From assembly GCA_002269645.1 (NCBI GenBank), contig NIVC01001518.1, positions 186,001 to 250,000 of the forward strand: a stretch of 64,000 nt of DNA, in the 5' to 3' direction. A program made the translations under genes and the position numbers. The stretch is from Macrostomum lignano. Its lineage: Eukaryota. The notes beneath the pieces were generated by a model. The model ran no database searches. It was not told the origin of the DNA and saw only the letters and a program-made list of their open reading frames with translations. Shown here piece after piece: positions 9,874 to 44,131 of this stretch (positions within the stretch are counted from its first letter, which is position 1; the number at the start of each line of letters is the position of its first letter).

Positions 9874-10673
9874 AAGCCAATTCTTGCGTTGGCTGTGATT
9901 GTTAAGAGATTATTTAGTTATTAATTGTTGTTTTTGTGCTCCTAATTCTAACCTTATTTACCCATACGAACGTCCTGCCCGTTTTAACTTCACACAGAAT
10001 GGGGTACCAAAGCCTCCCTGTGAGTGCCAGTGTGCGGCTACGAAAGGAGTGCAGTCTCTGTACCTTTGAGACTGGAAGTCTTTGAGCGTATAGGACCCTT
10101 CCCGCACTGAGAATCTACATGTAGAAACCAAGGAGCACGTGCCTTCTGGTAAGCTAGATGCGTTGCTTTGTAGGTGCAATTTCCAATTATAACTGATCCG
10201 TTCTATTTTAATAGGTGAATCCGTAATCCCCTTCAAGAATATTCGAGAAATTCCTCTTAATTTCGTACAGCCTCGTCTGTTTGACAAGCTATGAAGCCAT
10301 CCCGTAACATGGAGCTCTAAATACAATCCTTCATTTGGCGATCGCCCAATGCTAGCTCAAATGCTCTTAATCACCTGCACGGAGCCCATGCTTCATTTAA
10401 GTAGAAACAGGATGGTTTGTGATCCTCAACAGCGGTCATTTAATCTATTACTCCCAAACCCACAAGAAAAATCGAAATTCCAAAAAGTTACGCTCCTATT
10501 TTGAGTTCTGATTAATAACTGGTACCAATACGGAAGCGCAGTTACAGGCTAAGCGCGGGCAAATCTTTATATTTGAGGTATCTTTTTGCTCTTCAGCGCA
10601 GTTTTCATGTCTTGCTGGCTGTAACAGAAAATAGAGGAGTCTTCAATAAAACAATAGCAGGTGTTATTGGAGT

Positions 10674-12986: not shown

Positions 12987-12992
12987 CTAGTG
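12987..12992 (+). other. 6-bp target-site duplication CTAGTG (left copy; right copy at 44132-44137)
   Basis: gttcCTAGTG|agtagaagg ... ccttctact|CTAGTGcaagcc; 6-bp TSDs are characteristic of Polinton integrases. Confidence 0.9.
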
Positions 12993-13893
12993 AGTAGAAG
13001 GCATGAGGGGGCTTTTGGGACAAAATTTTTCACGTCCTCCATAATTCCATTAAATCCATCTATATTATCCCCGACAGAATCAGAAAAAAAGGGGGGTCGC
13101 ACTCGCTCACAAAACGTCCTCCATAATCCCATTAAATCCATCCATATTATCCCTGACAGAATCAGAGCATAACAGGTGTCCTACTTGCTCCGAAAACTTC
13201 GAACATAATCCCATTAAATCCATCCATATTATTCCTGAATCAGAGCATAACAGGTGTCGCACTCGCTCACAAAACGTCATCCATAATCCTCCTTCCTCCA
13301 CGACAGAATCAGAGCATAACAAGTGTCCTACATCATCCACTGAAATCCACCCATAGCATCTTCGAAACAATCAGAAAAGAATCTGTATTCTTCTCCACAC
13401 ATTCAATTCGCAACGCATCCCAAAGATTTTAAATCATCAGCGCAGTGTCCTTACCCTTTGAAAAAAATTAAATTCTCAATAAAAATGTTTCCAGTTGTCT
13501 CTCCAGGTTCCTATTATACTCAGCCTCATCCATTGTACAAATCCAAGTACCGATGTAAACTAGAATGCAGCGAGTACATGAGAAAATATTGGCCCGATGT
13601 TCAAATCAATGTCCCTAATATTAATCTAGCTCTCCAAAGACATTGGTTTCATAAGTATGGAGTAACCTATGTAAAAGATTATGACAGCTACTATAACTTT
13701 GCAGAAATCATTAGGCAATTGTGATTTCTTACATTCTCTCAATGATCAACGTCAATACAAACTCTTCACCGTTGAAATCAACGCCCATCCCATCTTCAGT
13801 CTCAAACTGTAGCACAATCTCGTGAATCTCCTTATTACTCAATACAACTCTTTTCACTGGATTTGGTTTCTCTACCACCATCTGTCCTCCAGC
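12993..13893 (+). repeat. Left terminal inverted repeat (~900 bp) with internal repeats (ccataatcccattaaatccatccatattat...acagaatcagagcataacaggtgtc)
   Basis: Its reverse complement is found in pieces at 27597-27772, 29434-29486 and 43579-44131. Confidence 0.85.
13485..13724 (+). CDS. 79-aa Tyr-rich hypothetical protein encoded inside the TIR
   Basis: Homologous intact ORF at 26248-26487(-) differs by many synonymous changes; A-rich leader before the ATG. Confidence 0.75.
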   Translation: MFPVVSPGSYYTQPHPLYKSKYRCKLECSEYMRKYWPDVQINVPNINLALQRHWFHKYGVTYVKDYDSYYNFAEIIRQL

Positions 13894-14592
13894 AACAGAG
13901 TTGGAGATGTTGTACAAAATATTCGTTCGCTTTCCCTTAAATACCCAATCAAGACTGAGATTAGTTCTGATTAGAATATTCAAACCCTTTACAATGTCTG
14001 CTATATTGGGTGCTAAGAACAAACCGCGTACGTTTTCCCGGGCCATGATAACGGCCCCCGTCGCTTGAGTGACAGTCCGCGCTGTGGATTCTGCCTTATA
14101 AACTTTCTTCACGAATCCCAATTCCCTATACCAAGTGTCATCTTTAAACTCAACCTCCGCATCTTTGTGAACTTGCATGACCACTCTCATTACAGTGAGA
14201 TCATAGGTTAGTTTGACAGGGAACAATTTTTTATCTGGCTTACTCGCATCAGGTGTCTCAAAATGGCCTCTTTTAGTAAAGACGTTTTCTAGAAAGTAAT
14301 TGTAGGTATCCACACTTTGCGTGCTCACAGGGAATACCACAGGGTCTGCTGCTGCACCTTTCCAATTGTAATAAAACTTATTATTTGCTGCCGACACATT
14401 GGGAACGTTTGACCAACCAGTGAAGTCGTTAAGATAGACATGGTAATTAGCACCTGGATCCAGGCGAATCGCCTGCTCTAATTTTTGAATAAATATCCCG
14501 TTTGAGTCATTTATTCGCCCAGTTATTGTAATAGGAATGCTCTCCTTGGAGTGCGAAATAATATTATTTAGTCTTTCAGCAATCGCTTCCAT
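13729..14592 (-). CDS. Minor capsid protein (penton-like, single jelly roll)
   Basis: N-terminal F..WSNVPNV...NNKFYY and C-terminal F.TEDG..VDFNGEEFVLTL patterns typical of Polinton minor capsid proteins; adjacent to the MCP; intact 287 aa. Confidence 0.8.
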   Translation of the reverse strand: MEAIAERLNNIISHSKESIPITITGRINDSNGIFIQKLEQAIRLDPGANYHVYLNDFTGWSNVPNVSAANNKFYYNWKGAAADPVVFPVSTQSVDTYNYFLENVFTKRGHFETPDASKPDKKLFPVKLTYDLTVMRVVMQVHKDAEVEFKDDTWYRELGFVKKVYKAESTARTVTQATGAVIMARENVRGLFLAPNIADIVKGLNILIRTNLSLDWVFKGKRTNILYNISNSVAGGQMVVEKPNPVKRVVLSNKEIHEIVLQFETEDGMGVDFNGEEFVLTLIIERM

Positions 14593-14614
14593 TTTTTTTC
14601 ACATAAAAAAATAT

Positions 14615-15901
14615 TTAAACTTTACTGGATGAATTGTTGATCATGTTAAGCTTCACCTTCCTCTCAAATGCATAGATAATGTACAGGTCCACGGGTGTTG
14701 CGGTAGTCCTCTCAATGTTAGTCACGATATTCACAGGGCTGTTATCAGTAGGTATTTGTCTGGCAGACACATCAGCGCCAAACATCGGATATAGAGTTCC
14801 ATATTGAAGAGCAGTGATAGCAATTCCATTGTTCTCTTTCACAGCCAAGTCGACCAACTCACTATAAAATTTGCTAATCTTGTTCTGACTGAAATCTCCA
14901 TTTTGTGGCAGTGCAGGGTAAAGATTATCACTGATTTCATGCTGAATGGACCGCACGTCTCCATGCATGTAGCGTATAATGCTATTTGGGTTTCTCATAT
15001 TAATAATGATATACCTTGGATTGCTGCATGATCCCTCTTTAATGCAGATATTTGTTCTAGTTTCGTTTCGCTCATCTCGACACATGTAGGCTGTGTATGC
15101 AACATCAATGTCCTTCTCTATTGCCTTAAGATAATCCGCTTTTAGTGCAGTCTTTGGCTCAATGACTTCCAAATACAGCTCGATTCCGGTTAGCTTCACC
15201 TCCATCCTTGTGTGGTCCGCCCCAGTCCACAACACTCTACTGCGATCATCTCTAGTCAGTCTAAATGTGTAGCTAAAGTTACTAGTCAGTCGATTAAATG
15301 TATTACAGAATCCACTCATGAATCTCAATGGTACAAATACATCAACAGACCGATACTGCGGGTTCTTAGCAGCATCATCTGCACCTTGCAATGCATAGTT
15401 GTATCTCTTCTTCCTATTTTTATAACCACTGTCATTGATATCTCCTTCTTTTTCGTCTGCAATAAAACCCGCACCACTTCCCAATTGAATAAAATCAGGA
15501 TTCTCAATCAAACAATGAGCGTCATAGACAATTCCAAAGTTGGCGATTCGCTCCAACTCAGTGCTCCCATTCGATACACTAAACTCCTTGAACATGTACG
15601 CCCAAAAGTTACTGATCAGAGCCACATCCGCATCATGCTTGTCAACGTTAGCACGAGCCGCATCCACACCACCCTTTGTCTTGAATTGAAATGTCATATG
15701 GAAGCCGCTCTTAAGACTGTGCACACTAACCAAAGACGAACATCCATTGTATGTAAATGTCAGTGTTTGGCCAGGACCAAGATTAGTTTCATTCTGATTT
15801 TCCTGACTGGGAACTCTTACCTGAGTCGCTTTGATTGTGCTATCATCACTCAAAATAGGCTTGTTAATTTTGTAGAAAACTGGTGTCAGTGGGTCGTTCA
15901 T
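14615..15901 (-). CDS. Major capsid protein (double jelly roll, hexon-like)
   Basis: 428 aa, tandem with the penton gene; patterns VFVPLRF..GFC..F..L, F.LTRDD...L, LYP..P..GDF and YPMFG.DVS resemble Polinton MCPs. Confidence 0.8.
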   Translation of the reverse strand: MNDPLTPVFYKINKPILSDDSTIKATQVRVPSQENQNETNLGPGQTLTFTYNGCSSLVSVHSLKSGFHMTFQFKTKGGVDAARANVDKHDADVALISNFWAYMFKEFSVSNGSTELERIANFGIVYDAHCLIENPDFIQLGSGAGFIADEKEGDINDSGYKNRKKRYNYALQGADDAAKNPQYRSVDVFVPLRFMSGFCNTFNRLTSNFSYTFRLTRDDRSRVLWTGADHTRMEVKLTGIELYLEVIEPKTALKADYLKAIEKDIDVAYTAYMCRDERNETRTNICIKEGSCSNPRYIIINMRNPNSIIRYMHGDVRSIQHEISDNLYPALPQNGDFSQNKISKFYSELVDLAVKENNGIAITALQYGTLYPMFGADVSARQIPTDNSPVNIVTNIERTTATPVDLYIIYAFERKVKLNMINNSSSKV

Positions 15902-15931
15902 TTTTTAACTAAAAATAAAATAAAATAAGAA

Positions 15932-17296
15932 ATGAAGCGAAAAAGTACACAGCAGATATCTGAATTGGAGAAGCTAGCACAAGCAGAGAAACGAGTTACC
16001 GGGCTAATAAATAAGGAGCAACAATCCTACAATGAGTTTGTCCAAGCAGCCACAGAGTTTCATAAACCCGGGTATGGAGAAGCGAAGAAAAACATCGACA
16101 CTGTGAAGGAAGCAATTGATGATATTCAAGAGAGCCAATTGCAAAACACATTGGGTAAAATTCCATCTTCACCGGGACAACCACAGGCTCAGGAACCAGG
16201 ACAACCAGTGCAGATGAAAGTGACGGATAACTTTTTTGGCCCCGTAGTGGATGATGGAAAATATATATTTGGAATTAGCGCTTGGCGAAAAAATATTACC
16301 GGGGAACCGGCGGATTACAACCTTGAAGTGACAAAGGATGATATTTCAATCAATAAAGGCGCAAAAACTAAACGAATCCCCTTCACTCAAAGTTTACTCG
16401 ACTACATGACTAAAAATCAGGAAAAAATATCCGAGAAGCAATTAAAGAATTATAGAGATCTGGTTACCTTCGCTTTAGAGAGGGACATAGACATTCTCAA
16501 GAACAACGGTGTTTTGAAAGTTTTACATGAAAACAGGATTGACTTGAACAGGTTAAGAAAATACAAATACTTTAAACAATGGTTTGGTTTGCCGGATCAA
16601 GAAGAGGTCATAAGACAACAACAGCAGCAACCACAACAGCAGCAACCACAACAGCAACAACCAAAACAACAACTACAACAACCACAACAGCAGCAACCAC
16701 AAACACAACCACAACCACAACAACCTCCACCGCCACAGTAACAAATCACACCCGAACAAGTACTAGAAGCGCTTGAAAAAGCAGGGCCAAATGAGATTTC
16801 CCAGTACAGAAACCAGCGCCCAGATGAATGGCGACAATTAGAACAGTTCTCCCCAGAACGAATGAAGCGAATCAATGACAGAGTATTCACACCTCAACAA
16901 AGACAAGCGCCACATGACAGTTCCTCCTCTGACCAATCATTCGAATCACCTCCAAGCTCTTCCGGAAAAGGCATGCCTGAATTCTACAAGCGGTTAGCTG
17001 TTCTTCTAGGAGCGGCAAAGACTGGAATGAAAGATGAGAATAGAAAAGAGTTCGTTCATATCCTAGACAAAATGCTTGAGAGAAAATATATCGATAAAAG
17101 AGCAAGAGAACTTTTGCTTTCACGGTTTAACAAAAAAATAAATTTCTATTTAAAAAGATGCCAATTATTTTCGAAAAAGACATTGACAAATACTATGACA
17201 AAGAGGAACTTAATCTCATTAAACGCGGATCTGGACTTTTCCCTGCAGGCCACTATCCAAGAAAAGAACGCTCTGGGAATGGCCTTGCCGATTTGA
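15932..17296 (+). pseudogene. Polinton protein with Q/P-rich tract; ORFs 15932-16741 and 16862-17296 are one frame interrupted by a single TAA
   Basis: CCA CAG TAA CAA ATC continues in frame with no further stop into KRLAVLLGAAKTG...EF..ILDKMLE..YI, a motif type seen in conserved Polinton ORFs. The true 3' end is uncertain. Confidence 0.6.
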
Positions 17297-17538
17297 TCGC
17301 TCAGGGGGCCAAGATTTTTAAGGTCATTGGAGAGAACAAAGAGAACATCAAGAACGTTGCCGAAGCGGCTGGCAGTGTAGTCACAGCAGCCAAGAAGATT
17401 AAAGATACGGTTAATGAAACCCAGAAATCAATACCAGATATTCAACCCCTTGCACCGAGTGCAGATAGTGTCGATCCAGCCATCTACGCAAAGATGAGAG
17501 CTGAATATAAGAAAGGAGGCGGTTTTAAATTTGACTAA
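17158..17538 (+). CDS. Small basic putative virion core protein with Gly motifs (GSGL, GNGL, GGGF)
   Basis: Intact 126-aa ORF between capsid and ATPase genes; the Gly motifs resemble adenain-type cleavage sites (inference). Confidence 0.55.
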   Translation: MPIIFEKDIDKYYDKEELNLIKRGSGLFPAGHYPRKERSGNGLADLIAQGAKIFKVIGENKENIKNVAEAAGSVVTAAKKIKDTVNETQKSIPDIQPLAPSADSVDPAIYAKMRAEYKKGGGFKFD

Positions 17539-17733
17539 TTTGGTGCACCCTGACGGTAAAAGAGGTGTGAGGGTGTAGGACTAGTCGGATGTAGGACTAG
17601 TCGAAAAAAGACACACACAACCCGAAAAAAGACACACACATCCCGCAAAGAGACACACATACACATCCCGCAAAGAGACACACGCGTCTTAAATACACAA
17701 GTTTAAAAAGAAAAAGTTTTTTTACATAAAAAA

Positions 17734-18255
17734 ATGGACTTCACAAACGACTTTCATCCCCACTGGACACGCAATCAGATAAAATTTGCTCACAACGAGA
17801 TAATTCCAGGGCACTTCCGATGCATTGTTGTTGGCTCATCTGGGTCAGGGAAAACCTTCAGAGTTTTTAACATGCTCCTCAGACCTGGATTCCTCGATTA
17901 TGACACACTACATATCTATTCACCCACTCTGTATCAAGATGAGTATAAAATGCTAGTAGCGGGCCTACAGAACAAACTCAACAAGGAAGATATTATTCAA
18001 TGTTTTAGACATCAAAAAGACCTCAACAGCAACCCGGAAGTTGCAGCCACCGAACACGCAAAGCACATCCCAGACAATGAAAAATGGCAAAATATTAAAG
18101 TTTTCACTTATGGAGATCCACAGATAGATCCTAAAACTAAACTCTTACCTCAACCTGATGAACTAGAAAAGGGGAGAAAGCACCTGATTGTCTTTGATGA
18201 CTGCATGACCGGTCCCCAGAAACAGATAGAAAATTATTTCACCCAAACCCAATGA
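17734..18255 (+). pseudogene. A32/FtsK-like packaging ATPase, 3'-truncated
   Basis: Walker A VVGSSGSGKT and Walker B LIVFDD; the frame ends at YFTQTQ*, before the expected RH motif. Confidence 0.88.
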
Positions 18256-18404
18256 GATCCTGGCTTATCGGTGGTGTCAAAGTTCATGATGCCGCATTCC
18301 TTTCTTAGAGGAAAATCAGGCAGAGTGTCCCTCATAAATATTCCTCTAAAGTTTGGGATTTCCAGTTCGTTAGCCAAATCTTCAAGAAAGTTATTTGTTG
18401 TCAT
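18234..18404 (-). pseudogene. Adenain-like cysteine protease, N-terminal 56 aa only (not in the ORF track)
   Basis: MTTNNFLEDLANELEIPNFRGIFMRDTLPDFPLRKECGIMNFDTTDKPGSHWVWVK*: FRG.FMRD.LP, ECGI.N.D and GSHW (catalytic His) motifs. Confidence 0.85.
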
Positions 18405-18471
18405 TTTTTATGAGGTTTATTAAACTTTCTCTTAAACCTAAACCCAATCTCCTAATCTCCAGTGCCCGAAT

Positions 18472-21400
18472 CTAACCTCCACCTCCTAAGCCTAATTTCC
18501 GGTGCCCGAACGGTAGACTGTTAATATTGTCATCAAAAATGAATCTCTTGTTATCTGCACCTGACAGTCCAATCTCCTTTTGCTGAATTGTGTGAATAAT
18601 ATGGTTTTTAGATTGTAGCTTTGAGAACTCATGTGATGTCTTTTTGTTGCAATTCAAGGCGTCTCTGTATTCAGCTTCATTAATTTCCTTCCTAACCATA
18701 CGTTTCGGAATTCCCTTTGATTTTTTAATTGGGTCTGACGACTCACATTTTACAAAATAGGACTTTGCTCTCAACCCAATGAATTCAGTGATTATGTCAC
18801 CAGCAATCTCGTCCTTCATTTTCCCAATCACTTTCTTGTTAGTGGCGTCAAACACTTGATCGCCATTCTGTGTCCTGCAAGATTCATCATACTCAGACAA
18901 GTCAAACAAATCTTTTTGCTGCAGCATGTCCTGATAAATGTCTTCTGTTTGAATGTCCATAATAAAACTGTCTGTGTCGGTGTACAAGAGTTTCATTTTA
19001 TCCTTGTACTGCTGCTTCATGCCATAGAAGAACTGGTACATCAGACGTTTTGATTCGTCGAGAACAGTGACACCTGTATAGATCGGCTTGCGCAGCGTCA
19101 CCTTGGTTTTGTAAAATATGATCACACCTAAGTAGCTATTAAAGATATGGAGTTCTTTGAATGTTGGCTTTGACATATTTGCCTGAATAACAGCAGGCTC
19201 TGATGAGGTAACAAGTTTCAGGTTTGTTCTTTTCCGCTCTTTCTCAAGAGTCTTGCCATAGACAGAGTTGTTGGCTAACTTAAAGAGGTTCTTGTCAAAA
19301 TCGTTGGTTGCTTTGGTCCTAAACTGGGTATTCTTATCAATGTAGGGTTTCATCCACGCTTCCTCTGTAAATGTAAGAGCCCTGTGAACTTTGGTGACCC
19401 TGCAACCAAGTGAGATAAAATACTGAAGCAGTTTGTAATGGATTTTGTAACGTGTCTTGTTGTTTAGATTCTGTGTTAGTTTCTCTGTATGTTCTTTTTC
19501 TGTTCCTGACAGGTGCCAAGTTCCATTATTATCATTGGGAGTTTCGATTATTTTCGGGCACTTGATGTTCTCTGGGAAGGGTGGAAAGTCAGAGAAATAG
19601 TCGTGAAGCTCTGGTGGAATGTAAACATCAACCTCATAAATGGCAGCCAATGAAAAGTCCCACTTTAGTTCTGATGAGGGTAGCCATCGAAAATCTCTAA
19701 CTGGAATATCTTGACTCATCGCCCAACCGTAGAGATTATTAGCGTCCAAGTAAGTAATGTAGTTTGAGGGCTGCTCCTTATTGTAAGATTCAATGTAGGG
19801 ATTGTTTGCTTTTGCATACCTGTTAACACAAATTGAGATCCCCCCTCGCTTTGACGATTCGACAAAATTGTACATGTCAATATCTGTAAGAAGTTCAATG
19901 TACCAATCTGGATCTTGATCCCATTTCATTTTAAGCAAAGATTCCCAGCTAGGGGGCAGGCAGAGACACATAATGTGCTGGATCGAGGCCATATGCTGTG
20001 TACCAGGTGTATCTGAAGGTTTCAAACATATCAGCCAGCAGAAAAACATCTGTGAACAGGTAAAGCAGGTGATACTGGAAGAATTTTTTGACAATTAAAG
20101 TAATTATAGACATGCTTTGCGTGCTCATAGTCTTTGTCAGAGATTCCAGAGTCTGTTAGTTTTGAAAAGAACTTCTCCTGTGGTGGTAAACCTTCTTCAA
20201 ATACGTGATAACCAGTAATATTCTCATAGGGGTAGAAGCCTTTCTTTCTTAAAAGTTTAAATGATTCATCAGTGTTGTTAATTTTACTTGCAAACATCTT
20301 TGTATATGTACATTGTTCATCTTTTAGATTCTTGCTTAGTTCGTCTAGACTGGCAGCTAGAAATTGATATGAATCCTTCAGTCTTATTTTACCTGTACCC
20401 GAATTATCCTGTTTAATATCAACACACTTAAACTTCTCCTTGTTCTCTGCGATGCAATCAAGGTGTATGTCTGGAATCATGCCGATTTTTTCAACTATTA
20501 AATGCATGTCATAGTTCTTTGCGTTGTGACAAAATATCGTTAGATCATGAATGTTCGATTTTAGCTTTAGATTACAGGTGTTATGCGCTGCACCTCTAAA
20601 TTTCCCAGTAAAGTGGCAGTGGTCTCTAACGGTCGGGTTTTTAATATTAGTGCAAGTTAAATGTTTCCTGCAGATGTGGCAATGAGTTGCTGATAGGAAA
20701 TTGTTTTCATCCTCCTCAGTCATCATTATTGGAACAGGTTGAAGGGTGCTAATCACTCTTTGCAACTCTAACATTCTGGCAATAAACTGCTCCACACACT
20801 GCTCTCCAAAGAAATAATTATACTCAACAAGTCCTTTTGTAGTAATAAAGGCATATGCTACTGAATTGGGGACATGTTTTTGAGTTTGAGTTTGTTTTTG
20901 AGTTTGTTTTTGTGTTTCCGGCATGATTGAGCATTCGAAATCAGCATATACAACAAATGGGAGCTTCTCCATCTTGTGATAGTTCTTAAACCGGAGATAC
21001 TTCTTTTCAGCTGAAGGAAGAGAGCAGTTTGTTGGGTGATCCTCGCATGATAATTCATGCTCTGCTAGTTTTTCAAAGCGTTCAGGTCCACTGTAATGCT
21101 TAAGGCACAAGCGGCAGATGGCAACAGCCTCGTGATGATTATTCAACTGCTTGTGAATGAGTCTTGAAAGATCTTTAATCCAAACATAGTGAGCCTCCTC
21201 TAGTAAATTACCAATCACTAGAAGATCCACTTCAGTCGGCCTTTTCCCCTCAGGATCTAAAACGTCTTTGCTACATCTGACCGGTTGAACTTTCTCAGTT
21301 TTTTCACTCCACTCAAAGACTGTGATTCTAATTTTGTTATTAAACACTTCTTCTAGCTTTGGGATCTGAGAGATCGCCAAGCCTCCTTTGTCAAACCTGA

Positions 21401-22307
21401 TTCCCTTCTTTTCGCATTCGATGAGATAGTAGTTGAAATAATTTTGATAATTTGAGGTTCTTTCGGGGTGGTGAGGGACACTATCATAAAGAAGTGCAGA
21501 AAGAACTGCCCATAGAGCACAGCAATTGTCTTTATTTTTAACATTTATGCAAGCTTTTTTACCGGCTAGCTTATGCGGGAGCTCTATATAAGAGGAGGCT
21601 TTAAGTGGGTCATATTTCATGACCATGACAGTCGCTCTTTGAATCCCTCCCACGACCCATCCGGAACCTCTGGATGTAAACGCTTCAATTTTCTTAGTGA
21701 CATCTTGAAGGAAAGGATCCAGTGTGTCTGTTGGGGTGAATGGCTTTGCCTTTGTTGTCATGTAATACTCGAGATGCTCAGTGGGTTTCGCAGGCATATA
21801 AAACGCAATCTTGAATTATATCTGTAGTTTAAAGGTCTTGCGTGTTTTGAGTGTGTGATCAACAACTGATTGGATGCTGTCTTTATAGTCGTAGATGTTT
21901 GCGGTGGTATCCTTAATTGGGATTGTGTACTCTATGTAATGTTCTGTAAACTTCCTCTCTTCAATGGCAAGCTCCGACTCTTTTAAATGGATTAATTGCT
22001 CTAATTTCTCTTGTTCCTGCTTATTTTGTGGGTACTTTGCTTTTTCACCAGTGAGAGTTTCGTATTTGTTAACTAAGTTGCGACTCCTCTCTTGGTGTTC
22101 CTTTGCAGGATTTTTTATAGGCGCATACTGGTTGGATTCTAATTGATTGATGATTTCCAACTGTTTTTCATAGCTTCCCAGGTGACCAGGGTCGGTGTTG
22201 AACTTTTGTTTGCATGCTTCTCTTAGTGAATTACTTTTGTCTTAAAATGAGACGCCTTTTGAAAAATGTTTGTTGACTAAATCTTTTGCTGGATTAGCTT
22301 TTGGCAT
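18472..22307 (-). pseudogene. pPolB: Protein-primed family B DNA polymerase, disrupted
   Basis: ExoI YADFE, ExoII HNAKNYD, ExoIII YHLLYLFTD (in a third frame), DANNLYGWAM, KLANNSVYGK and YTDTDS; RDHCHFTG..RGAAH..CN zinc motif. Frameshifts at ~19955, ~20088 and ~22255; in-frame stops at 21816 and near 22240. Confidence 0.95.
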
Positions 22308-22433
22308 TTTTTTCTCTAAAATAAAGAAAAAATTTTTGAGGGTGACCACCCTGATAGAAAAGTTGAACTGTTTCTACATCCTATAAGTAGCGCTAGGTTT
22401 ATAAAGCTGGATAAAGTGGGGTTTTAAACCTCA

Positions 22434-22879
22434 TCACATCCGCATTATTGTAAACCCAGCATTGTGCAGTGTCATGATGGCTTTGACAATGTCAGACTTG
22501 CTTACAGAATTTTCATTCTCACAATCATCACGATCGGGGCAGCCCTCTCCTGCCTTAATTGTTATACCTTTGTCTCTTGCAATCTTTTGCAATTCAAGCT
22601 GGTGGGCCCTATCATTCCCAGCTTTAACAGCAGTTGCTACACCTCCAGCTACACCACCTGCGGCACTTACAGCGCCTGCAATGATCGGAATAAGAGCTGC
22701 TAATGGTAGGATTCCTCCTGACTTTTCATCTGTGATGTTGTGTCTTTGCTCATTACACTCAAGTATTTGCTGTGTGGGATCAACCTTAACTTTGACACCT
22801 TTAATTGATATAAGATCTGGTTCTTTGATTCAATGATTTTATTGAGTTTATTGATGGTTCTAGTTTCAATCTTTGTCAT
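22434..22879 (-). pseudogene. pX/pVI-like precursor with GG|ILPLAALIP amphipathic peptide; one frameshift near 22830 (not in the ORF track)
   Basis: Minus frame reads DEKSGGILPLAALIPIIAGAVSAAGGVAGGVATAVKAG...KIARDKG...FTIMRM*; the ATG at 22879 is in another frame. Confidence 0.7.
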
Positions 22880-22895
22880 TTTTTATTTTAATATT

Positions 22896-23890
22896 TTAAT
22901 TAATTTCCGTGTCAGCTGGTATCACTAGGAGTTCAGCTCTAGTGAATGACCGCGTGGGGGATTTAGGGTTAAAGGCCTGAGATAAAAAGTAATAGTCACC
23001 GGAGTCGGAGGTAAAATGTCTGTCTATTTTATGTACATCAAGGCTGAAGTATGGATCTGTAGCTCTTCTTTTGGTGTCCTTCTCTAGCTCTCCAGGTAGA
23101 TATAAAAAGCGTAGAAACTCAGAGTTTGTCAGTATGTATGGTGATTCAACTCCTGGAAGCTTAGGGTAGTTCGAGGTGTCTGTTCTATGAGATGACTTAA
23201 GTTCGACAGTGTCTTGTTTAATTGCATGGGATGGTTTCAATCCAGTCATGCGTGTGACTTCATTGTTCAGTTGCTCTATAACAGTGGGGAGCCGGTCTGA
23301 CCACTTGTATAGTACTGACCACTTTTTAGTTTCAGCTCTTCAGCTGTCTGCTTAGTGAATAGCCTCTTGGCTAGAGTTAGATTGAATCTTTCCACAAAAG
23401 CCTGGTCTCTGTGTAGCTCAGTTCTTCCATAGCGAATTTTTGTGTCATGCTTATGTAGAAGTGATTTCACTGCACCCATGAATTCATTACCCGGGTCCGT
23501 CATAAAGATTTCAGGGTAACTAAGGGGTGAGTTTTTATAAATATCTTGAAGGGCGGCTGCAACTGCTTCTGATTGTTTAGTCTTCAGCGGTCTTGCTTCC
23601 TTATAGCGGGAGGCAATATCTATAACTGTGAGAGCATACTTGTAACCTGAGTCATTGGGGAGAAACAATAAGTCTGCTTGGTGTGCCTCATTGGGTTTAT
23701 AGATGTTAAAGTGAGGTCTCGTAAATTGAACAGGTGGGAAATAGACTTAAAAGACAGCCTGCTTAGAGAGCCACTTTTCTACTTTAGCTTTTGGTTCCTT
23801 ACTTAGTTCTGCGAGTTTGGTGACGGCATTTTTTCCTACAAAGAATCCTTTGTCACTGTAGTAGAGTTTTTTAAGTTTCTGGTCTGTCAT
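22896..23890 (-). pseudogene. int: Retroviral-like DDE integrase of the Polinton
   Basis: HQADL(L)FLP, TVIDIASRY, MTDPGNEF and VERFNLT; premature TAA near 23747 and a frameshift near 23300. Confidence 0.92.
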
Positions 23891-23920
23891 TTTTTAAAAA
23901 AGAAAGTTTTAAATAAAATA

Positions 23921-24370
23921 ATGCAACGCTCTGGTGGTAAAATAGATTCACATGGACTGATAGAAAAGCTTCCTCATCCAAACAAAGGCTGGACAGTTCC
24001 AGGGTACAAATATTGTGGGCCTTTGAATCCACTTGAAATACAGTTAGATAAAAACAATAATCCAAATCCTGGGCATGAGCCTGTGAACGAGCTAGACTCT
24101 GTCTGCATGTGGCATGACATCAAGTATAGAGATTTTCCTGAGGAGAAGAATCGGTGGGACAAAGAAATGCTTAGGAGATTAGACCATATGGGGGCTTCAA
24201 GCGGATTTCGTGAGTCGATTGCTAGGAAATTAGTCAAGGCGGTTATTTTTGGAAAGACAAAATTGGGGTTGGGGGTGTACGCCGAGGGCGGGGTGGGCTT
24301 TGTATTGCACGCACCAAGTAAAAAACTAGGCAGACTGCTGAAAGAGCTGGGGGTTGAGAGAGCAGAATGA
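23921..24370 (+). CDS. Phospholipase A2 domain protein of parvovirus VP1u type
   Basis: VPGYKYCGP (Ca-binding loop), PVNELD...C..HDIKY (catalytic HD) and D..ML..L; intact 149 aa. Confidence 0.85.
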   Translation: MQRSGGKIDSHGLIEKLPHPNKGWTVPGYKYCGPLNPLEIQLDKNNNPNPGHEPVNELDSVCMWHDIKYRDFPEEKNRWDKEMLRRLDHMGASSGFRESIARKLVKAVIFGKTKLGLGVYAEGGVGFVLHAPSKKLGRLLKELGVERAE

Positions 24371-24400: not shown

Positions 24401-24505
24401 GAGAGACAACTGGAAACATTTTTAGAGAAATTATTTTTTTCGGAGGATGAGCACCCTGGGTTTAGGTAATTAAAGTCTTTGGGATCTGGTTTCGCGAATT
24501 GAATG
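24401..24505 (-). repeat. Degenerate relic of the inner TIR segment around the TIR-ORF start
   Basis: gagagacaactggaaacatt...aaagtctttgggatct...gaattgaatg matches 26470-26584 and 43608-43711. Confidence 0.65.
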
Positions 24506-24644: not shown

Positions 24645-24895
24645 TTATAGAAAAATTGTAACTTTTCCTGATCGTTCAGGATTTTTATTCAGGATTTTTT
24701 TTCAGACATGAACATTACTAACTACTAACAGTAGAAAAATCGCAACTTTTCCTGATCGTTCAGGATTTTTATTCAGGATTTTTTTTCAGACATTAAAATT
24801 ACAAACTACTAACAGTAGAAAAATCGCAACTTTTCCTGATCGTTCAGGATTTTTATTCAGGATTTGTTAGTTCCTGAAGTAACAGTAGAAAAATC
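24645..24895. repeat. 84-bp tandem repeat x3, each with the palindrome CCTGA-tcgt-TCAGG
   Basis: aacttttcctgatcgttcagg starts at 24660, 24744 and 24828. Confidence 0.85.
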
Positions 24896-24932: not shown

Positions 24933-25773
24933 TTATTCATCTACTACCGAAGCGTTATTCCATTCCATATTTGTTTCGTCCAACAGATCGTCATCTTCTT
25001 CTCCTTCAAATACAATCTCCAAATCAACCTCTAGTTTCGAACAAAAATTGTCGTCTTGGTCGGCTTCTTTTTCGATCGTTTTCTTAAACGCTAACAACGT
25101 CTCCATTGAGTATCCAGTCAACGCCAGATTAGGATATTTTCTCATAAGATTATGGAATGTGAATAGCCGCTCGGCAAACTTTATCCCAATGTCCAACCGC
25201 TTGGCCGCCACTTCTGTGCTCACCCCTAGTTGATTTTTCAGTTCGGCCAGAACTTCAGCCTGCTTTTTCCTGGCCAAACAGCTAAGTGTTTCTATCTCGG
25301 CGATGGACATTTCAAGGGTGTTGAATTGCAGTCGTTTGCCGTCCACATCAGCTTGAACAGGTCCCATACAAAGATTTTTAGCCTCGGAGAACCTAAAGGA
25401 AAGAATATTGGATCATAATGTGAATAAGGTCAAAGGTTTGCTTGCAAAAATATCCAATCTATGTCCAATTTCTAAAAATAAGCAAGACTTACCTCGTTTT
25501 AATCACCAGCTGTTCGTTTTTTATTGAATTAATTTTTTGCTTCAAGCGAGCTAAAAACCGAGCTTTCCGGTCTTCTTTATCTTGAGTACAAGATTTCTCT
25601 TTCTCCGAACGCTCTTTTCTTATAGAATTTACGTCTACTTTTTGTAAAAATTTTAAAAGTAAAGCTCTTTCGTGATTTTCTAGATTAGCAATGGCGATTG
25701 CCGTACTGGCGGAATCTTTACTACTAATACTCCTTAGCGTATTCAGAATTTTTACAGCGTCGCTGGAACTCAT
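24933..25773 (-). CDS. Intact two-exon gene (25773-25493, 25392-24933), 246-aa hypothetical protein with charged N-terminus, possible helical/HTH region and acidic tail
   Basis: Donor AG|GTAAGT and acceptor cctttag|G join the two track ORFs in frame (...VIKTR FSEAKNLC MGPVQ...); 100-nt intron. Confidence 0.75.
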
Positions 25774-25840
25774 GACAAGGCGGAGCGGACCCTGCCGGCG
25801 GGGTAGGCGGGCTGGGGCGAGGGGCGGTGTGAATCGGCTG

Positions 25841-25848
25841 TTTATATA
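25841..25848 (-). promoter_or_regulatory. Candidate TATA box (TATATAAA) for the two-exon gene
   Basis: Lies ~70 nt upstream of the ATG at 25773, with CCAAT just upstream. Confidence 0.45.
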
Positions 25849-26247
25849 CCATTGGTGTGGGCTCGGGAATCCATGGATTCTAGAATATTCTAGAATAAGG
25901 GAAACCCACAGATTTTCTACTTATAGCCAGTATTTTCTATTAATGGTTGATTGGGGTTGCCTGGGAAAGATCTAGGAAGACTGCTGAAAGAGTTGGGGGG
26001 TTGAGAAGGTTGGGGGTTTAAACAAGGAACTAAATGGGCGTTTCTGAAGCTAGGCAAGGGATCCTTTGAGCTAGTTAAGGCTTGAGCTGGGCAAGCTTTT
26101 TCTCTATGCTGCACACGCCGCTCGCGCTATGATAAGAAACAGCTGCCATACCCATTCCGCTATCACCCACCCACCACACAGCAAAATACCATGCGTAAAA
26201 ATATCTATTAATGCAGTCTTAGTCTTAAAGCGTATTGTAGCGACATT

Positions 26248-26487
26248 CTACAATTGCCTAATGATTTCTGCAAAGTTATAGTAGCTGTCGTAATCTTTTA
26301 CGTAGGTTATTCCATACTTATGAAACCAGTGTCTTTGGAGAGCTAGATTAATATTAGGGACATTGATATCAACGTCGGGCCAATATTTTCTCATGTATTC
26401 GCTGCATTCAAGTTTGCATTGGTACTTACTCTTGTAATTAGGCTCGTGCGCTTTGTAATAAGAACCTGGAGAGACAGCTGGAAACAT
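26248..26487 (-). CDS. Second, diverged copy of the 79-aa TIR protein
   Basis: MFPAVSPGSYY...NFAEIIRQL, intact. Confidence 0.75.
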   Translation of the reverse strand: MFPAVSPGSYYKAHEPNYKSKYQCKLECSEYMRKYWPDVDINVPNINLALQRHWFHKYGITYVKDYDSYYNFAEIIRQL

Positions 26488-26952
26488 TTTTTTTATTGAG
26501 AATTTAATTTTTTCTCAAAGGGTGAGGACCCTGCGCTGATGATTTAAAGTCTTTGGGATCTGATTTCGCCGCTTCGGATTGAATGTGGGCCCCATGGGGA
26601 GAAGAATGCAGATTTTTTTCTGATTGTTTCGAAGATGCTATGGGTGGATGTCAGTGGATTATGTCAGTGTCAGTGAGCATAACAGGTGTCCACTGTCTGA
26701 TTCTGTCGGGGATAATATGGATGGATTTAATAGGATTATGTTCGAAGTTTTCAGAGCAAGTGCGACCGCTCCCCTTTTTCAAGATTCTGTCAGGGATAAT
26801 ATGGATGGATTTAGGTGGATTATGGAGGATGTTTTGTGAGCGAGTGCGACCCCCCTTTTTTCTGATTCTGTCAGGGATAATACGGATGGATTTAATGGGA
26901 TTATGGAGGAGGTGAAAAATTTTGTCCCAGAAGCCCCCTCATGCATTCTACT
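26248..26952 (-). repeat. Diverged orphan TIR from a sister Polinton subfamily, ending CTACT, with no matching TSD
   Basis: Clearly similar to 12993-13724 but more diverged than the 43579-44131 copy; flank cgtctg differs from CTAGTG. Confidence 0.85.
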
Positions 26953-27596
26953 CGTCTGCATTGTCGGCAAATGGGGTTTCTCTTTTAAGGCGTTTTACAG
27001 TCTCCAAACACTTATCTCTTCCAATCTCGGCGGCTCTCCGCCTCGTTATTATTGTAGCAAGTCCTGCCATCTCGTCAGCTTGAGCAAGGAATTATAGGCG
27101 TGGTAGAGTGTGGTAGTGGAAAAAATGCAGTGCTGAGGAGAAATTAAATGTAGTCCCATTATATTAGGTAAAGGAGGAGGGGGGGGAGTATTTGGATTGT
27201 TAAGAAAGAGAGTGCGTGACTGGAGGTGGAAAGAGATTTTCAGTACAGTGGAACCCGCGCAGTGCAGCTAGAGGAATAGAATAGGTAAGTTTCCTATTTC
27301 AGGACAATAGAGACTGCATACTTTTTCATGTTATGGAGAGGAATTGAATAGGTAAGTTCCCTTTTTGAAGACAATAGAGACTGCGTACATCGAAAATGCA
27401 TTTCCCAGTATTTGAGGCAGTTTTCCGACAGTTTTCCGACAGTTTCTGTTGAGCAAAAAAATTCTGACAGTTTGTCAGATACTTGTCGCAAACAAAAACC
27501 CAATATCTACTAATAGTAGTCCTCCCTTTTCAAGAACAATAGAGTAATGTACACAGAGTACACTTAGCAGTAATAGTCGAAGACCAGAGAGAGTGA

Positions 27597-27772
27597 GCTG
27601 GAGGACAGATGCTGGTAGAGAAACCAAATCCAGTGAAAAGAGTTGTATTGAGTAATAAGGAGATTCACGAGATTGTGCTACAGTTTGAGACTGAAGATGG
27701 GATGGGTGTTGATTTCAACGGTGAAGAGTTTGTATTGACGTTGATCATTTAGAGAATGTAAGAAATCACAAT
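27597..27772 (+). repeat. Right TIR, innermost piece (inverted copy of 13718-13893, the penton 3' end)
   Basis: Near-identical reverse complement of the penton 3' sequence. Confidence 0.85.
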
Positions 27773-29433
27773 TGTAGTAGGGGGGTTTAGTTCAAGCAGT
27801 TTTGCTAAAGGCGTTTGCTATTCGTCGGGATGAATTATTTTAGTAGCATGAAGTCTAGAATAAGCAGTTTTGCTTTTACGCTACTGACAGTAGTTCACCC
27901 TCGGGGAAATATCTGAAGTTGTGGGAATTCGAGTATTAGTATTCGAGTTTCAATCCTGTGAAACTTGTCTCTGCCTGTCTGAAAGCTTGTAATGAGTTAG
28001 TAGGCTGGGTTGGAGGGTAATAGTGGATCGGGAAGGGCTGTGGGTAGCTGTATAGGAAGGCAGGCCTATACCTGTACCAAGGTGCTCTGACGGTATCCCT
28101 CAGGCGCCCTCTGAGCGTACAGCCAGCGACCCTATTAAAGCTGGAGTGTGCCAGAACCAGGACTGAGTCTGAGCAGGACGAGACCGTTGGCACGGTCACA
28201 ATAGAAATGGCGGGTTGGCGAAGCAAAGGGTGAAATAGTCCCGGCGATTAGCCCTCCTGCCGCTTCAAAGATAAGAGACTGTCTGTTGGCAAGAGTACCC
28301 GGGGTTTAGTTGGGGGGAGGCTCCTTCGGGTTGCCACGGCCGTGGGGAGCGGTCAAATGACCGGCATTGGCTTTTCTAACCCAGGAGTAGGCACGGGCTT
28401 CCCTGAATGGTTCTCTCAACCCCCACTGGCCTCGGGGAGGTTTATGATTTGTACCCGGGGGTAGAGGGGCGGTCGGCCCCAGCATGGTTGCCACGGCTCT
28501 AGGCCTTCGGGCCATCTCTAATAGGCTAAGGGGCTTTCTAACCTGGTCTGTGGGCACGGGCTTCCTGACTGGTTCGTCGAACCGCTACTGTCCCCCGGGG
28601 AGGTTTGGTTTTTTTGATACTGCCCTGTACAGTCCTCTATAGTCTAACTTGGCTTTTAGTGTACATTAGTACACTCCCAATCAGGAATCTAATTTATCTC
28701 TAGTGGCGTAAGAGCCTTTTTACTTAGGCTGAGGCGCCGGAAGCACTTATCATAGTCATATCATAGTCTCGGCAAAAGCATCCGTTCGGGACAATCAGTC
28801 TAGCATCCGTTCAGGACCGTCCATCAGGACAATATTTCAGAGACTAAGTCTCAAAGCACAAACTCAAATATAAGGGAGTCTCCCCTTGTATAAAGATAGA
28901 AATACTAAAAATTCTAAAACAGAAATTAAGGGTAAGTTTAGGGTAAAATAGGAAGGCTAAGAAGGAGTCTACCACTTAGTCAAAACGGAGTCTACCGAAG
29001 AATAGGAATAAATTAAGTAACATAGGGAAAGACTAAAGGAGTCTACCATTGGTCTAAATAGGACATCGGAGTCTACCGAAGTGCTAACATAGGACCTAAT
29101 TGTGTACTTTCTTTGCATATTTGGTTTAATAATATTTCTTTTGTTTGCTTGATTTAAATAATCTTATATGAAATTGACTCTTGTCTCACTTATTTTAATT
29201 TAACATTAATTATAAGGGGCATTAGTCTGGTGGCAGCGACCTACCAAATAAAAAGTACGTAATAGCAGATTAGTAGAGCAAAGTAATCTAGATCGTAACA
29301 ACTATTCATTCAAGTTAAGGTAGCTAGTAAATCTTCTAGCTTAATCTAAGCCCGGAGTCTCTCGAGCTCAGATTAATCAATTTAAAGAAACCAGTAAACC
29401 AGTAGCCTAAACCGCAGGTACCACGCTTGTCCA
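27773..29433. mobile_element. 1.66-kb TG...CA insert with 4-bp duplication CAAT (solo-LTR-like)
   Basis: agaaatcaCAAT|TGTAG...GTCCA|CAATtgcctg interrupts otherwise contiguous TIR sequence; contains a ~160-bp internal tandem duplication (~28330-28610) and ggagtctacc repeats. Confidence 0.55.
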
Positions 29434-29486
29434 CAATTGCCTGATGATTTCTGCAAAGTTATAGTAGCTGTCATAATCTTTTACAT
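29434..29486 (-). repeat. Right TIR, middle piece (inverted copy of 13669-13721)
   Basis: caattgcctgatgatttctgcaaagttatagtagctgtcataatcttttacat. Confidence 0.85.
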
Positions 29487-32986: not shown

Positions 32987-34981
32987 ATGAGTTCTGCACG
33001 AAGAAATGTACGAAGGAAGACGGACAAGTACCTGCTAGAAATGTTTCTAAATGATAATGTAGAATCAAGCTGCGACGCCACATCGAAGTCTGTGATGACA
33101 TCATTCGAAGTTTCCACTGCCGCTGCCTCAGCCTCACCTGAACGACTGCAAACTGAAGAAGCTTGCATTGAAGACTGTGTCATCCCCGATGAATTGGAAT
33201 CTGTGAGCAGCAGTAGTAACGACGGAAATAAAAGTGAAATTGAGAATGAGCCGGAAGATGACAATCGGTCCTTGGAGGAGAAATTGCTAGCTTTGCTCGT
33301 TCTACTGGTGACACTTCACAATGTGCCTCGAACAACAATGGAGTTTTTGATTTCCGGACTCCGATCTATTGGACTGCCTGCACCTGAATCTACAAGCAAG
33401 ATTGAAGTACTTGCCAAAGCCGGAGAGCCATCAACTAAGTTGGAACTCATGGGAAGTGGACATTTCAGGTACATTTCGATTCAAAACAATCTCGAAGTTC
33501 TGCTTGGCCACAACCTTTTGCGACTCGACCCAGGAAGTGTAGAGGATGAGGGCACTACGAAAGTATATAGATTTGAAGCGACTTTAAATTGTGATGGGCT
33601 ACCTCTGTACTCTTCAAGTTCGTTTGGCTTGTGGCCAATATTAATGAAAATTCCTAAAGCTTTTGACCGACCCTTTCCGGTGGCTGTTTGGGCTGGCGTT
33701 GGAAAGCCTCCGCTTTTTGAATACCTGAAAGAGTTTTGCGATGAGGCTACTCGATTTCTCTCTGGGCCAGTCAATATTGGTGATTCGGTGAATATCATGC
33801 TCACTACCATCTACTTTATCTGCGACTCACCGGCTCGCTCATTCTTGATGGCCACATTAGGGCACAACAGTTACCATGGCTGCAGCTATTGCAGAGCCAC
33901 TGGGCCGTACGTTTCCAACAGAGTCACATTTGCTGTGACTGCCGGTCCAAGCAGATGCGGAGAGGTATACCGTGCTGGCGAAGAGACTAACCAGAAAACT
34001 AAATCCGGAGTTTTGTCACCTCTTTTGAGTCTCCCCAACATCGACTTTGTGCATTCTTTTCCTCTTGACTATCAACACGCCGTTTGCCTTGGAGTAGTTC
34101 GCAAGCTTATGCACTTCTTTTTTGGCAAGACAGACAGCAGGGGGAGTAGAATATCCCCAAATTCTCTGGGAATTCTCTCAGAGAGAATAGCCGAAATTGC
34201 CTGCTGGACACCATCTAACTTTCAACGGAGACCACGGCGTCTGGATAAGAACCTAAAGCATCTAAAGGCCACCGAATTGAGACAATATCTGCTATACCTG
34301 GGACCTCTATTGTTTCTAGTCTTTGTCCGCGAAAGGTATTACAAAAATTTCTTACTTTTGCATTTTGCACTGTACGTCTACTCGACTAAGCGACACTCTG
34401 ATCTATTGGATCAAGCAAAAAGGGCAATCGAGATCTTTGTTGAACAGATCCCAGAGTTGTATGGCCAGCGATCAGTCAGTTTCAACGTACATGCCATCCT
34501 TCACTTGGACCAATTTGTTCGACGGCTCGGCGATGTGAATCAGTTCTCGACCTTTCCTTTTGAGAATTATTTGGGAGCAGTTAAAAGGCGTATCAAGGTG
34601 ACTAGATATGCAGCTGCACATTCCATCAAGCAGGTACTCAAGGTCCGCAACCTAATGCTGAAGGATCCAACTTTGCCGCCGGTAAAGTACAGAGCAAAGC
34701 GAGGCGACAACTGCTGTTTAGTGGGCAAGCTCTGCGTCCTCATCGAGGAAGTCAAACCAGACGGCAACGTGACTGGCAAGGTTCTGTAGCCTGTAGATAA
34801 TATCTACACCTATCCATACGAGTCCTTAGTGCTTGGAATCGGCCAGTACCGAGTGACTGCAGCCAGCACGACTGGGAGACCATGTTCGAAGAGCTGGATA
34901 ATTCCTAAAACTTGGACTGGCGACGATGGCATAAACGAAGAGCACTACTACGTCATACCGTTGGCAGGACATGATGAGTGA
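32987..34981 (+). pseudogene. CACTA/EnSpm (CMC superfamily) transposase; in-frame TAG at 34787-34789 with 63 further codons to 34981
   Basis: NCDGLPL...LWPI, ICDSPAR.F...GHNSYHGC.YC, DYQH...LGV, KATE.R, NVH...HL and FPFEN motifs; downstream of the stop the frame continues YTYPYES..LGI...VIPL. Confidence 0.88.
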
Positions 34982-41760: not shown

Positions 41761-43578
41761 TTGACAGATTTTTTAGATTTCCAAGGCTTATTGGGGGCAT
41801 TGCTGAGATGTCAAGGGGGCGAGTTGATATGTTAAAGCTTGTGGTGGGGAATTACTGACATGTCAAGGCTTACAATGTTTGACAGGAGATTTTTTAAGAT
41901 TTCAAGGATACATGTAGCTTATTAAAAAAACGTGTAGCTATTGCATTTCTTTGGCTCCCCAACGGGGGGCGTAGATTGCTAGTCAAAAGCTAAACGTTTG
42001 TATGAGTCGTTTTAAAAATGGGGCAGTTTTAAGTGATACATTTTAACTATTATTTGTAATTTTAAATTCCATATGTTACTTTCTGATTGCCACAATGAGG
42101 TTCGTATCGTTGAGTTGGGACAAATACACGCGGTGTGAGTCTGGCGGAAAGTAGAAGTTGGTTAATTACGCAGCAGTCAAGGATAACGGAAAAAACATTT
42201 CACACTTTAATCTTTCAATTATTTTCGGCTTACTCATATTCACAATGCTACAAGTAAACCACTGATTATTATAAATAAGTTAAAATACGCTTGTAAATTA
42301 TTATTTAAATTTATTTTATTAAAGATTACAAAATGACTATAGTATGCTTGCAACGATTTCTAAATCTATTATTGAAATACTCCTATGTTATTGAGTGCAT
42401 TTACGCTCGTACTTTTGGCTCTTTTGCTGGTGCTAAAATGTCTATGTTCCTGTGCATACATTTGATACTATAGCCTACGAGCGTACATTTCCGATGTCCC
42501 AAGGGAACATTCCTTGTTTAGAGTCTGTAGTATTTGCTCGAAGAGGAAACGAAATAAAGAGGCCGGGAGAAAAGAGAAGCAAGCAAGCACAAGCAGCCAA
42601 AAAAGCGGTAAAAAATACGGAAAATGAGAACTGGAATTTTTTTTCACGTCGAGATGCTATGCTGATTGTTATTGTTCAGTAGTCCTTGGCTTCAATTCTA
42701 AATCTTGAACACAGCTCTTAGTTCTCTTTGACTCAGCCTTTATTCGATTCGGGGGTGCGGGGTTGTTTGTAGAACAAGAGGAGAAAGGATCCCTTCGCTA
42801 GACATGCGGGGTTGCGGGCCGCGGCAGAAATGGAAGTGCCATTAAAAAACACATTCTGCTTTGCTCTTTGTCCTGCTGGGCAAGTCTTTCGGAATCATTT
42901 TCTATATGGTCTGTGCTGTGGCTTCCCACCATGTCCTATACACCATGTCTATGTGGTCTATTAGTTCTACGAGTATAAATCACACGCCCGACATGGCCTA
43001 TATGTATGAACATGATGCACATTGCACACATATACACGTCTAGCCACTTGTTATGTATAAATTGAAAGATCCTCGATTTTATATAAAATGAAAATTTGAA
43101 CTGCGCGCGTTTGTTTGGCAGTACTACCTAGTATAAGTAGCACTTACGGATAGTTATAGATATGACAAATTACAAAAAATGCAGAATAAATCACAAAAAA
43201 AATTGCAATGCTAATTCAGATCAGATTATTGAATATGCCACCAATACTAAAAATCAATACGTAACAAAGCAATATAAAAGCATTCGTTCATTAACTTTTA
43301 ACCTATGACTACAGATGTAATCAATTATATTGAATATTACGATTTCGTCACCCCAACGCTCAAGGGTCTCGGGGCGGATAGCTGGGCGAACTTACTCTTA
43401 CTGAATAGAAATAGTTTTAAATGGCTGTTAAAAGTCCGAAAAGTTTTTAAAGAAGTGCATTAACTGTAAAAGAGCACTCAGGATGCCTTAGAATTATAAA
43501 AGCCATCACGGTTTTGGGGCGCACTACTTGGACTCCTGGGCGCCCGGCGCCTCCAGTCGCCTCTAAAAATTTTCCCAC

Positions 43579-44131
43579 TGGGTGAGGCTGAGTATAATAG
43601 GAACCTGGAGAGACAACTGGAAACATTTTTATTGAGAATTTAATTTTTTTCAAAGGGTAAGGACCCTGCGCTGATGATTTAAAATCTTTGGGATGCGTTG
43701 CGAATTGAATGTGTGGAGAAGAATACAGATTCTTTTCTGATTGTTTCGAAGATGCTATGGGTGGATGTCAGTGGATGATGTAGGACACTTGTTATGCTCT
43801 GATTCTGTCGTGGAGGAAGGAGGATAGGTTAGGAGGATTATGGATGACGTTTTGTGAGCGAGTGCGACACCTGTTATGCTCTGATTCAGGAATAATATGG
43901 ATGGATTTAATGGGATTATGTTCGAAGTTTTCGGAGCAAGTAGGACACCTGTTATGCTCTGATTCTGTCAGGGATAATATGGATGGATTTAATGGGATTA
44001 TGGAGGGCGTTTTGTGAGCGAGTGCGACCCCCCTTCTTTTCTGATTCTGTCGGGGATAATATAGATGGATTTAATGGAATTATGGAGGACGTGAAAAATT
44101 TTTTCCCAAAAGCCCCCTCATGCCTTCTACT
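43579..44131 (-). repeat. Right TIR, outer piece (inverted copy of 12993-13532)
   Basis: Near-identical to the left TIR; ends CTACT followed by the TSD. Confidence 0.93.

Follow-up and report, generated by a model that had tools for sequence, protein, structure and literature searches.

A Polinton of the flatworm Macrostomum lignano carries, next to its right terminal inverted repeat (TIR), a spliced gene encoding a predicted helix-turn-helix (HTH) protein, with a perfect heat-shock element (HSE) above its TATA box and an array of palindromes after its stop codon. The window, which is the whole stretch of DNA analysed here, comprises 64,000 nucleotides (contig NIVC01001518.1, positions 186,001 to 250,000), and all positions given below refer to it. 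The splicing, the linkage to Polintons, the HSE and the array are all established, and because the gene lies between an HSE and an array that is linked to its allele, it probably encodes a DNA-binding regulator that is induced by stress and moves together with its predicted binding sites. We put at about one half the probability that this element-resident gene is a heat-induced HTH regulator that binds the adjacent array and, most likely, activates other genes of the element. In the mechanism we propose, host heat-shock factor would drive the promoter, a dimer of the protein would bind the palindromes, and the array would act as an enhancer with the acidic tail of the protein as its activation region; swapping of alleles would alter specificity, such that sub-families control mainly their own arrays. 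The HSE and the palindrome array, both of which were missed in the first-pass annotation, hold most of the mechanistic information.

The coordinates of the gene and its surroundings are listed in Table 1. The proposal that two open reading frames are spliced into a single protein of 246 residues is upheld, the joined exons giving 741 nt that encode 246 amino acids and a stop. Contigs from four of four RNA-labelled runs, representing four studies, skip exactly 100 nt (with CT and AC at the borders on the plus strand) and join precisely at 25493/25392, the junction put forward for checking; the same joint is present in run X7, to give a total of five RNA-labelled runs from four studies, the label being assigned by inference, with no run recorded as RNA. 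One contig of run X9 breaks off at the acceptor, and we interpret the 16-nt loose end there as the last part of exon 1, apart from a single difference; run X1 has an unspliced contig alongside the spliced one. In the two DNA-like runs, X15 and X16, the joint is absent and the contigs continue through the intron. The segment with GT-AG ends is thus removed in the RNA-labelled runs and retained in the DNA-like ones, as is characteristic of a spliceosomal intron, and the spliced gene is confirmed as real. A UniRef protein from M. lignano is 99% identical to exon 2; we rejected the UniRef name 'endonuclease-reverse transcriptase' (P0001, P0003), as no such domain is found in P0003 or in the exons in the window. 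X7 alone also skips 34 nt (26081–26114), with GT-AG ends on the minus strand, in an indel-rich region between the TIR open reading frame and the promoter.

Table 1. Coordinates of the spliced gene, its regulatory features and the surrounding Polinton in the window.
Feature	Position	Strand	Description
Exon 1	25493..25773	-	281 nt, ATG at 25773; predicted helical hairpin and long basic helix (fold from the 64% identical sister P0002)
Intron	25393..25492	-	100 nt, phase 2, GT-AG (GTAAGT...TTTAG)
Exon 2	24933..25392	-	460 nt; long helix, HTH, helical bundle, acidic tail; TAA stop at 24933
Predicted helix-turn-helix	25137..25217	-	Helices 47-54 and 58-73 of the core model; weak Pfam HTH matches in relatives
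Acidic hydrophobic C-terminal tail	24936..25040	-	Candidate activation region
TATA box TATATAAA	25841..25848	-	75 nt above the ATG
Heat-shock element TTCnnGAAnnTTCnnGAA	25878..25895	.	Perfect, four units, above the TATA box; the sole one in the element
84-bp tandem array	24648..24868	.	Three 16-bp palindromes TCCTGA-N4-TCAGGA (24666, 24750, 24834) and extra half-sites; contains the nearest AATAAA
Polinton body	12992..23900	.	Left TIR, probable minor capsid (position only), double jelly-roll capsid, A32 ATPase, split PolB, interrupted integrase
PLA2-like gene (PF08398)	23921..24370	+	Convergent with the spliced gene; inner border of the slot
Subterminal TIR region remnant	24401..24505	-	79% like 13400-13503
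Inner right TIR	26250..26953	-	79% like the left end; contains a 79-aa ORF (26248-26487)

The gene occupies a slot between the PLA2-like gene and the right TIR of a Polinton that has capsid, ATPase and PolB genes. The matches to protein-primed PolB (PF03175), packaging ATPase (PF04665) and double jelly-roll capsid (PF21738) each lie below the Pfam cut-off, and it is the co-occurrence of the three core genes, here and in sister elements, that identifies the element as a Polinton. The left TIR (12992–13722) is matched at the inner right TIR (79%) and again at 43576–44132 (96%). The integrase-like region is interrupted and has no Pfam match, no protease was identified in the window Polinton, and a search for a 6-bp target-site duplication found that the left flank matches neither right flank. 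With its split PolB, interrupted integrase region and lack of a target-site duplication, this copy looks damaged and appears to be rearranged; the gene order is identical from end to end in three sister elements. Both terminal repeats contain a conserved inward-pointing 79-aa open reading frame with an A-rich leader (13485–13724 and 26248–26487) and no Pfam match.

The first-pass annotation left open whether the gene was a regulator captured by a sister Polinton or a host gene trapped by recombination. There are at least 97 matches to exon 2 in the genome, and among 64 distinct loci examined (the best 30 of these matches and 40 others picked by hand) 52 are linked to Polintons, usually just inside the terminal repeat, with 43 adjoining the Polinton family of the window and nine adjoining other Polinton-type proteins. 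A position beside Polinton TIRs thus holds for most homologues but not for the other 12 loci, which have no Polinton match nearby. These 12, together with the intron and the TATA promoter, are what could be said for a host gene recently trapped by a Polinton, as could the intron-bearing cargo of nematode Mavericks, which is thought to be host-derived according to the accessible part of that report (bioRxiv 2022.07.12.499685). However, those of the 12 unlinked loci that are included in the tree sit inside Polinton-linked clades, the family is multi-copy in Polintons, and its intron is restricted to one branch of an otherwise intronless family, with the same promoter standing before intronless relatives. 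Furthermore, a protein search of 1.84 billion representatives gave only 14 matches, of which the named ones that were looked up are all from M. lignano, and no host orthologue with the same intron was found outside the elements in this genome or in the protein collections searched. Recent trapping of a host gene is therefore largely refuted, and we regard it as very improbable. No relatives were found in viral or metagenome contigs, and a search with P0014 recovered P0014 only.

The history of the intron can be followed within the family. A GTAAG donor and an AG acceptor are present at the same codon at 34 loci, with introns of 70–228 nt, and at 22 loci there is no extra DNA at this position; one intronless copy, L070, is 99.8% like L069. 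In a careful tree the intron-bearing rows form one supported clade (98/97) with L070 counted as intronless, while a quick tree, built without outside rows and with corrected labels, needs two changes and merely fails to reject a single origin; the deeper branches of the family are intronless. The simplest reading of these unrooted trees, and the most likely one, is that the intron was gained once inside the element family and was not inherited from a host gene. The intron-bearing alleles L072, L075 and L081 have D5/PriCT-2 primase-helicase genes and a distant PolB as neighbours, which places them in a separate Polinton or polinton-like family. The window allele has four copies in the genome, two of them with a stop in exon 2, and changes within its clade are few and look neutral. 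Against other clades synonymous sites are saturated, with pN of 0.23–0.44, and dN/dS values of 0.22–0.40 in five closer pairs indicate purifying selection.

Structure prediction supports the suggestion that part of the protein is HTH-like. The model of the window's own core has a pLDDT of 92.3, the model of the sister P0002 is all helical with a pLDDT of 83.7, and most of the 50 listed fold matches are HTH proteins. DNA-binding domains of the ParB family take the first five places among the matches to the core (Z 5.4–6.5), with KorB the closest (Z 6.5, rmsd 3.2, 78 residues aligned), followed by Spo0J (Z 5.6), SopB (5.5) and P1 ParB (5.4). Across KorB, Spo0J, SopB, P1 ParB and VirB the HTH and the helices that follow it align over 76–80 residues (Z 5.2–6.5, 9–13% identity), and ParB proteins likewise have palindromic sites near their gene. 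The window protein differs in having no ParA partner and no N-terminal CTPase/ParBc domain, its N-terminus being predicted as all-helical with no Pfam ParB match. Because all of the core matches lie below the confidence line of Z 8, and because Foldseek searches of PDB and BFVD returned nothing at E≤0.001, we consider it likely that the core folds as an HTH bundle and treat kinship with ParB as a lead; of the two structural checks that had been suggested, prediction thus gave a confident model but Foldseek no significant match. Sequence searches of Pfam, PHROGs and PDB gave no significant family, the DUF1016_N and DUF3102 HTH families are Atlas leads (0.87–0.89) and leads only, and the PF17761 profile has no match in this genome. 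The acidic tail seen earlier is evident, with 14 D/E and one K/R in the last 35 residues; it is less acidic in several relatives, and some have no acidic tail. A role as a regulator is probable.

The promoter has at least three alternating nGAAn units near a TATA box, as is typical of heat-shock-factor targets, and it may be inducible by heat. No four-unit HSE arose in 200 shuffles of the element. The promoter block occurs exactly 38 times in the genome, where it precedes alleles from about 30% to 100% identical, including intronless relatives. Perfect HSEs are present at 28 of the 54 loci with a detectable N-terminus, many through this shared block and in at least three different sequence contexts, and are absent at the other 26. 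A host-style TATA/CCAAT promoter had been described, and its TATA box stands, but the CCAAT label is doubtful because just 2 nt separate that motif (25855–25851) from the TATA box, a tighter spacing than is usual for an NF-Y box. The promoter is, as was claimed, unlike those of the core genes, which have A-rich leaders and mostly no TATA box. A second perfect four-unit HSE occurs outside the Polinton, at 10232–10249. According to the accessible portion of a study of M. lignano, an LTR promoter depends on HSEs for its induction by heat, two HSE-bearing families do not respond to heat, and a heat RNA-seq table contains one PolB-type transcript that is up (log2FC 2.8) and one that is down (−1.6), which carry cluster identifiers that cannot be mapped to the window element (PMC12801592).

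The array follows the stop codon of the gene; a 20-mer around its palindrome has 12 copies in the genome, all of them at the four loci that carry the window allele. In other clades the arms are different (TCCTGG, TTCTGG, TTCTGA, TCCTGT or TTACGA), with both arms changing together and the spacer free to vary; head-to-tail half-sites with a 13-bp spacing accompany the palindromes, several palindromes have GAAnnTTC-like cores, and remnants of older arrays are found inside newer ones. A perfect 6-4-6 palindrome is present in 11 of 16 allele clades (one locus per clade) against 0.8 expected, a ratio that overstates independence because the pattern was chosen post hoc, the position of one test window was adjusted manually and the clades are related. 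A control region further downstream has such a palindrome in one of 13 cases, and the background rate of recurrent palindromes is 25 in 300 random 1-kb windows. Arrays are absent in some clades (the L121 group, L134 and L149). As a later test, a second slot family proved to have arrays of its own in three of five clades. In one, a 207-aa gene that lacks introns and follows the same promoter is accompanied by TGAAACC-N3-GGTTTCA, and two more clades have a common ATACTGCAGTAT array that occurs in two Polinton families. The other two clades have no array, and a perfect HSE is absent in three to four clades of this family.

Alleles of the regulator diverge to about 25% amino acid identity, and a diverged allele usually comes with a palindrome array of its own, although the backbones are 92–94% identical; the gene and array therefore behave as a swappable cassette. 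At 32 loci, the flanking PLA2-like genes are 94.1% identical in DNA sequence to those of the same allele clade and 92.5% to those of other clades. These comparisons bear out the earlier suspicion of exchange between sister Polintons, with gene and array together exchanged between near-identical backbones, although a gene and its 3′ flank would be expected to move jointly through linkage alone. The cassette is found at the capsid end too. One element (L101–L102) has two different regulator alleles, one inside each terminal repeat. In a further later test, on 20 elements picked by their PLA2-like gene, six slots hold distant HTH-like genes (with arrays in two of three clades and an HSE in one), six hold an apparently spliced RING-finger gene, five have an array without either gene, and three contain little or nothing. 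The similarity of the distant HTH-like genes to the family is weak (hhalign 53% and 76%, with E 2e-5 for the latter). The five gene-less elements with arrays (L148, L150, L151, L156, L158) carry arrays of allele types seen elsewhere, plus a single new GC-rich one; these arrays could be remnants or respond in trans. The RING gene (L141:4597–5161 on the minus strand, L142, L143, L145, L147 and L159) encodes a coiled coil and a C3HC4 RING finger, has a GTAAG donor from which splicing is predicted, and in L141 has an HSE 74 nt above its ATG; it recalls the RING proteins of viral immediate-early genes.

Several observations count against the preferred activator: the palindrome is absent from the TIRs and core promoters in the window, about half of the loci lack a perfect HSE, some clades have no array, some arrays have no gene, and some relatives have no acidic tail. 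Other functions can be proposed for the protein and the array. The protein could bind the array as a repressor or immunity factor, with alleles forming exclusion groups among co-resident Polintons in the manner of phage repressor-operator modules, and with heat dampening or resetting the element. The joint change of allele and array on constant backbones would fit this, as would the repressor KorB as the top fold match, the element with different alleles at its two ends, and the older array remnants within newer arrays. A heat-inducible promoter and an acidic tail would fit an activator better, however, and no copy of the palindrome in the window overlaps a promoter; we consider a repressor unlikely. 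We think it less likely still that protein and array maintain a free linear genome, as a ParB/parS-like or EBNA1/E2-like tether or an origin-binding pair, instead of acting as a transcription switch. The fold is closest to ParB DNA-binding domains, the long N-terminal helix could dimerise, and 16-bp palindromes repeated beside the gene resemble the layout of parS, but the protein has no ParB CTPase domain and no ParA partner was seen, some of the sampled elements have neither gene nor array, and the proposed control by heat would be unexpected of a tether.

The palindromes could also be RNA hairpins or sites for host factors that hitchhike in the 3′ region while the protein has its targets elsewhere, perhaps among host genes during stress. 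Six-bp arms with a 4-nt loop could form hairpins, the GAAnnTTC-like cores and the nearest AATAAA inside the array would suit such a role, and because the slot also accepts a RING-finger gene it may carry general stress cargo. Yet hairpins would not account for the regularly spaced head-to-tail half-sites, nor for unrelated alleles being followed by unrelated palindromes, and the RING-bearing slots L141–143, L145 and L147 have no recurrent palindrome; we judge this the least probable of these three alternatives. For a stress-induced activator, the preferred reading, we speculate further that animal Polintons have an interchangeable regulator-operator module in which a host-stress-triggered HTH protein and its matching array form an allele-specific induction switch, a generalisation that is possible and that we hold tentatively. 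If it is true, the module would be a eukaryotic counterpart of the prophage immunity/induction cassette and a direct handle on what wakes endogenous Polintons.

Virus-encoded dimeric regulators that act on repeated palindromes in their own genome and have an acidic region are familiar from baculovirus IE1/hr, papillomavirus E2 and EBV EBNA1/FR; their folds are unrelated to that of the window protein, so the parallel would be one of function only. Among mobile elements, nematode Mavericks have intron-bearing cargo near the TIR (wasp proteases and krma kinases) and share with the elements described here a variable region between TIR and integrase, intron genes beside an intronless core, and exchange between elements, as far as the accessible part of that report goes (bioRxiv 2022.07.12.499685). 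The cargo differs: in the flatworm elements it belongs to an HTH family (or is a RING gene), comes with an HSE and an array of its own, and gives no indication of a toxin role, and the intron appears to have been gained inside the element family. Intact vertebrate Mavericks are reported to lack introns (PMC8097293) and introners invade dinoflagellate polinton-like viruses (PMC12166617), according to the portions of these papers at hand; because nematode Maverick cargo and the dinoflagellate viruses already have introns, the presence of an intron is by itself not new. A canonical HSE upstream of a TATA box is likewise known from other mobile elements, namely LTR retrotransposons of M. lignano (apparently the same host), ONSEN and Helitron1_CE, but there the HSE drives the element's own transcript whereas the window HSE precedes one regulator gene of a DNA virus-like element; Polintons or Mavericks are not mentioned in the accessible sections of that study (PMC12801592). 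Alpha-type adintoviruses, or Polintons with PLA2X, carry PolB, integrase, capsid, ATPase and PLA2-like genes flanked by TIRs, a gene set like that of the window Polinton with its interrupted integrase-like region, and the available part of their description mentions neither an HTH gene nor an intron (PMC8502044). HTH genes are similarly unmentioned in the accessible parts of two other reports (PMC10748475; 10.64898/2026.10.13.758929).

In the literature we found, which is mainly open-access, there is no published description of an HSE-regulator-array cassette and no element-encoded transcription regulator is described for Polintons, whose regulation and triggers the cassette could help to explain. 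The HSE, the folded HTH protein and the matching array lend themselves to three separate simple tests, in a laboratory flatworm that already has reporters for heat shock and RNA-seq data on the heat response. With its series of allelic proteins and their palindromes, the family also offers natural material for the study of protein-DNA specificity, and it documents the gain of an intron inside a virus-like element.

The second right TIR, at 43576–44132, lies 17 kb beyond the inner one, and between the two are fragments of the left subterminal region (27597–27774 and 29432–29486) and a 600-aa open reading frame (32987–34789) with no Pfam match, which we take to resemble a CACTA/EnSpm-type transposase. 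Further to the right lie a long satellite of 19-bp units (44918–48600) and an open reading frame with cysteine-rich, ephrin-receptor-like repeats (PF07699; 57584–59848).
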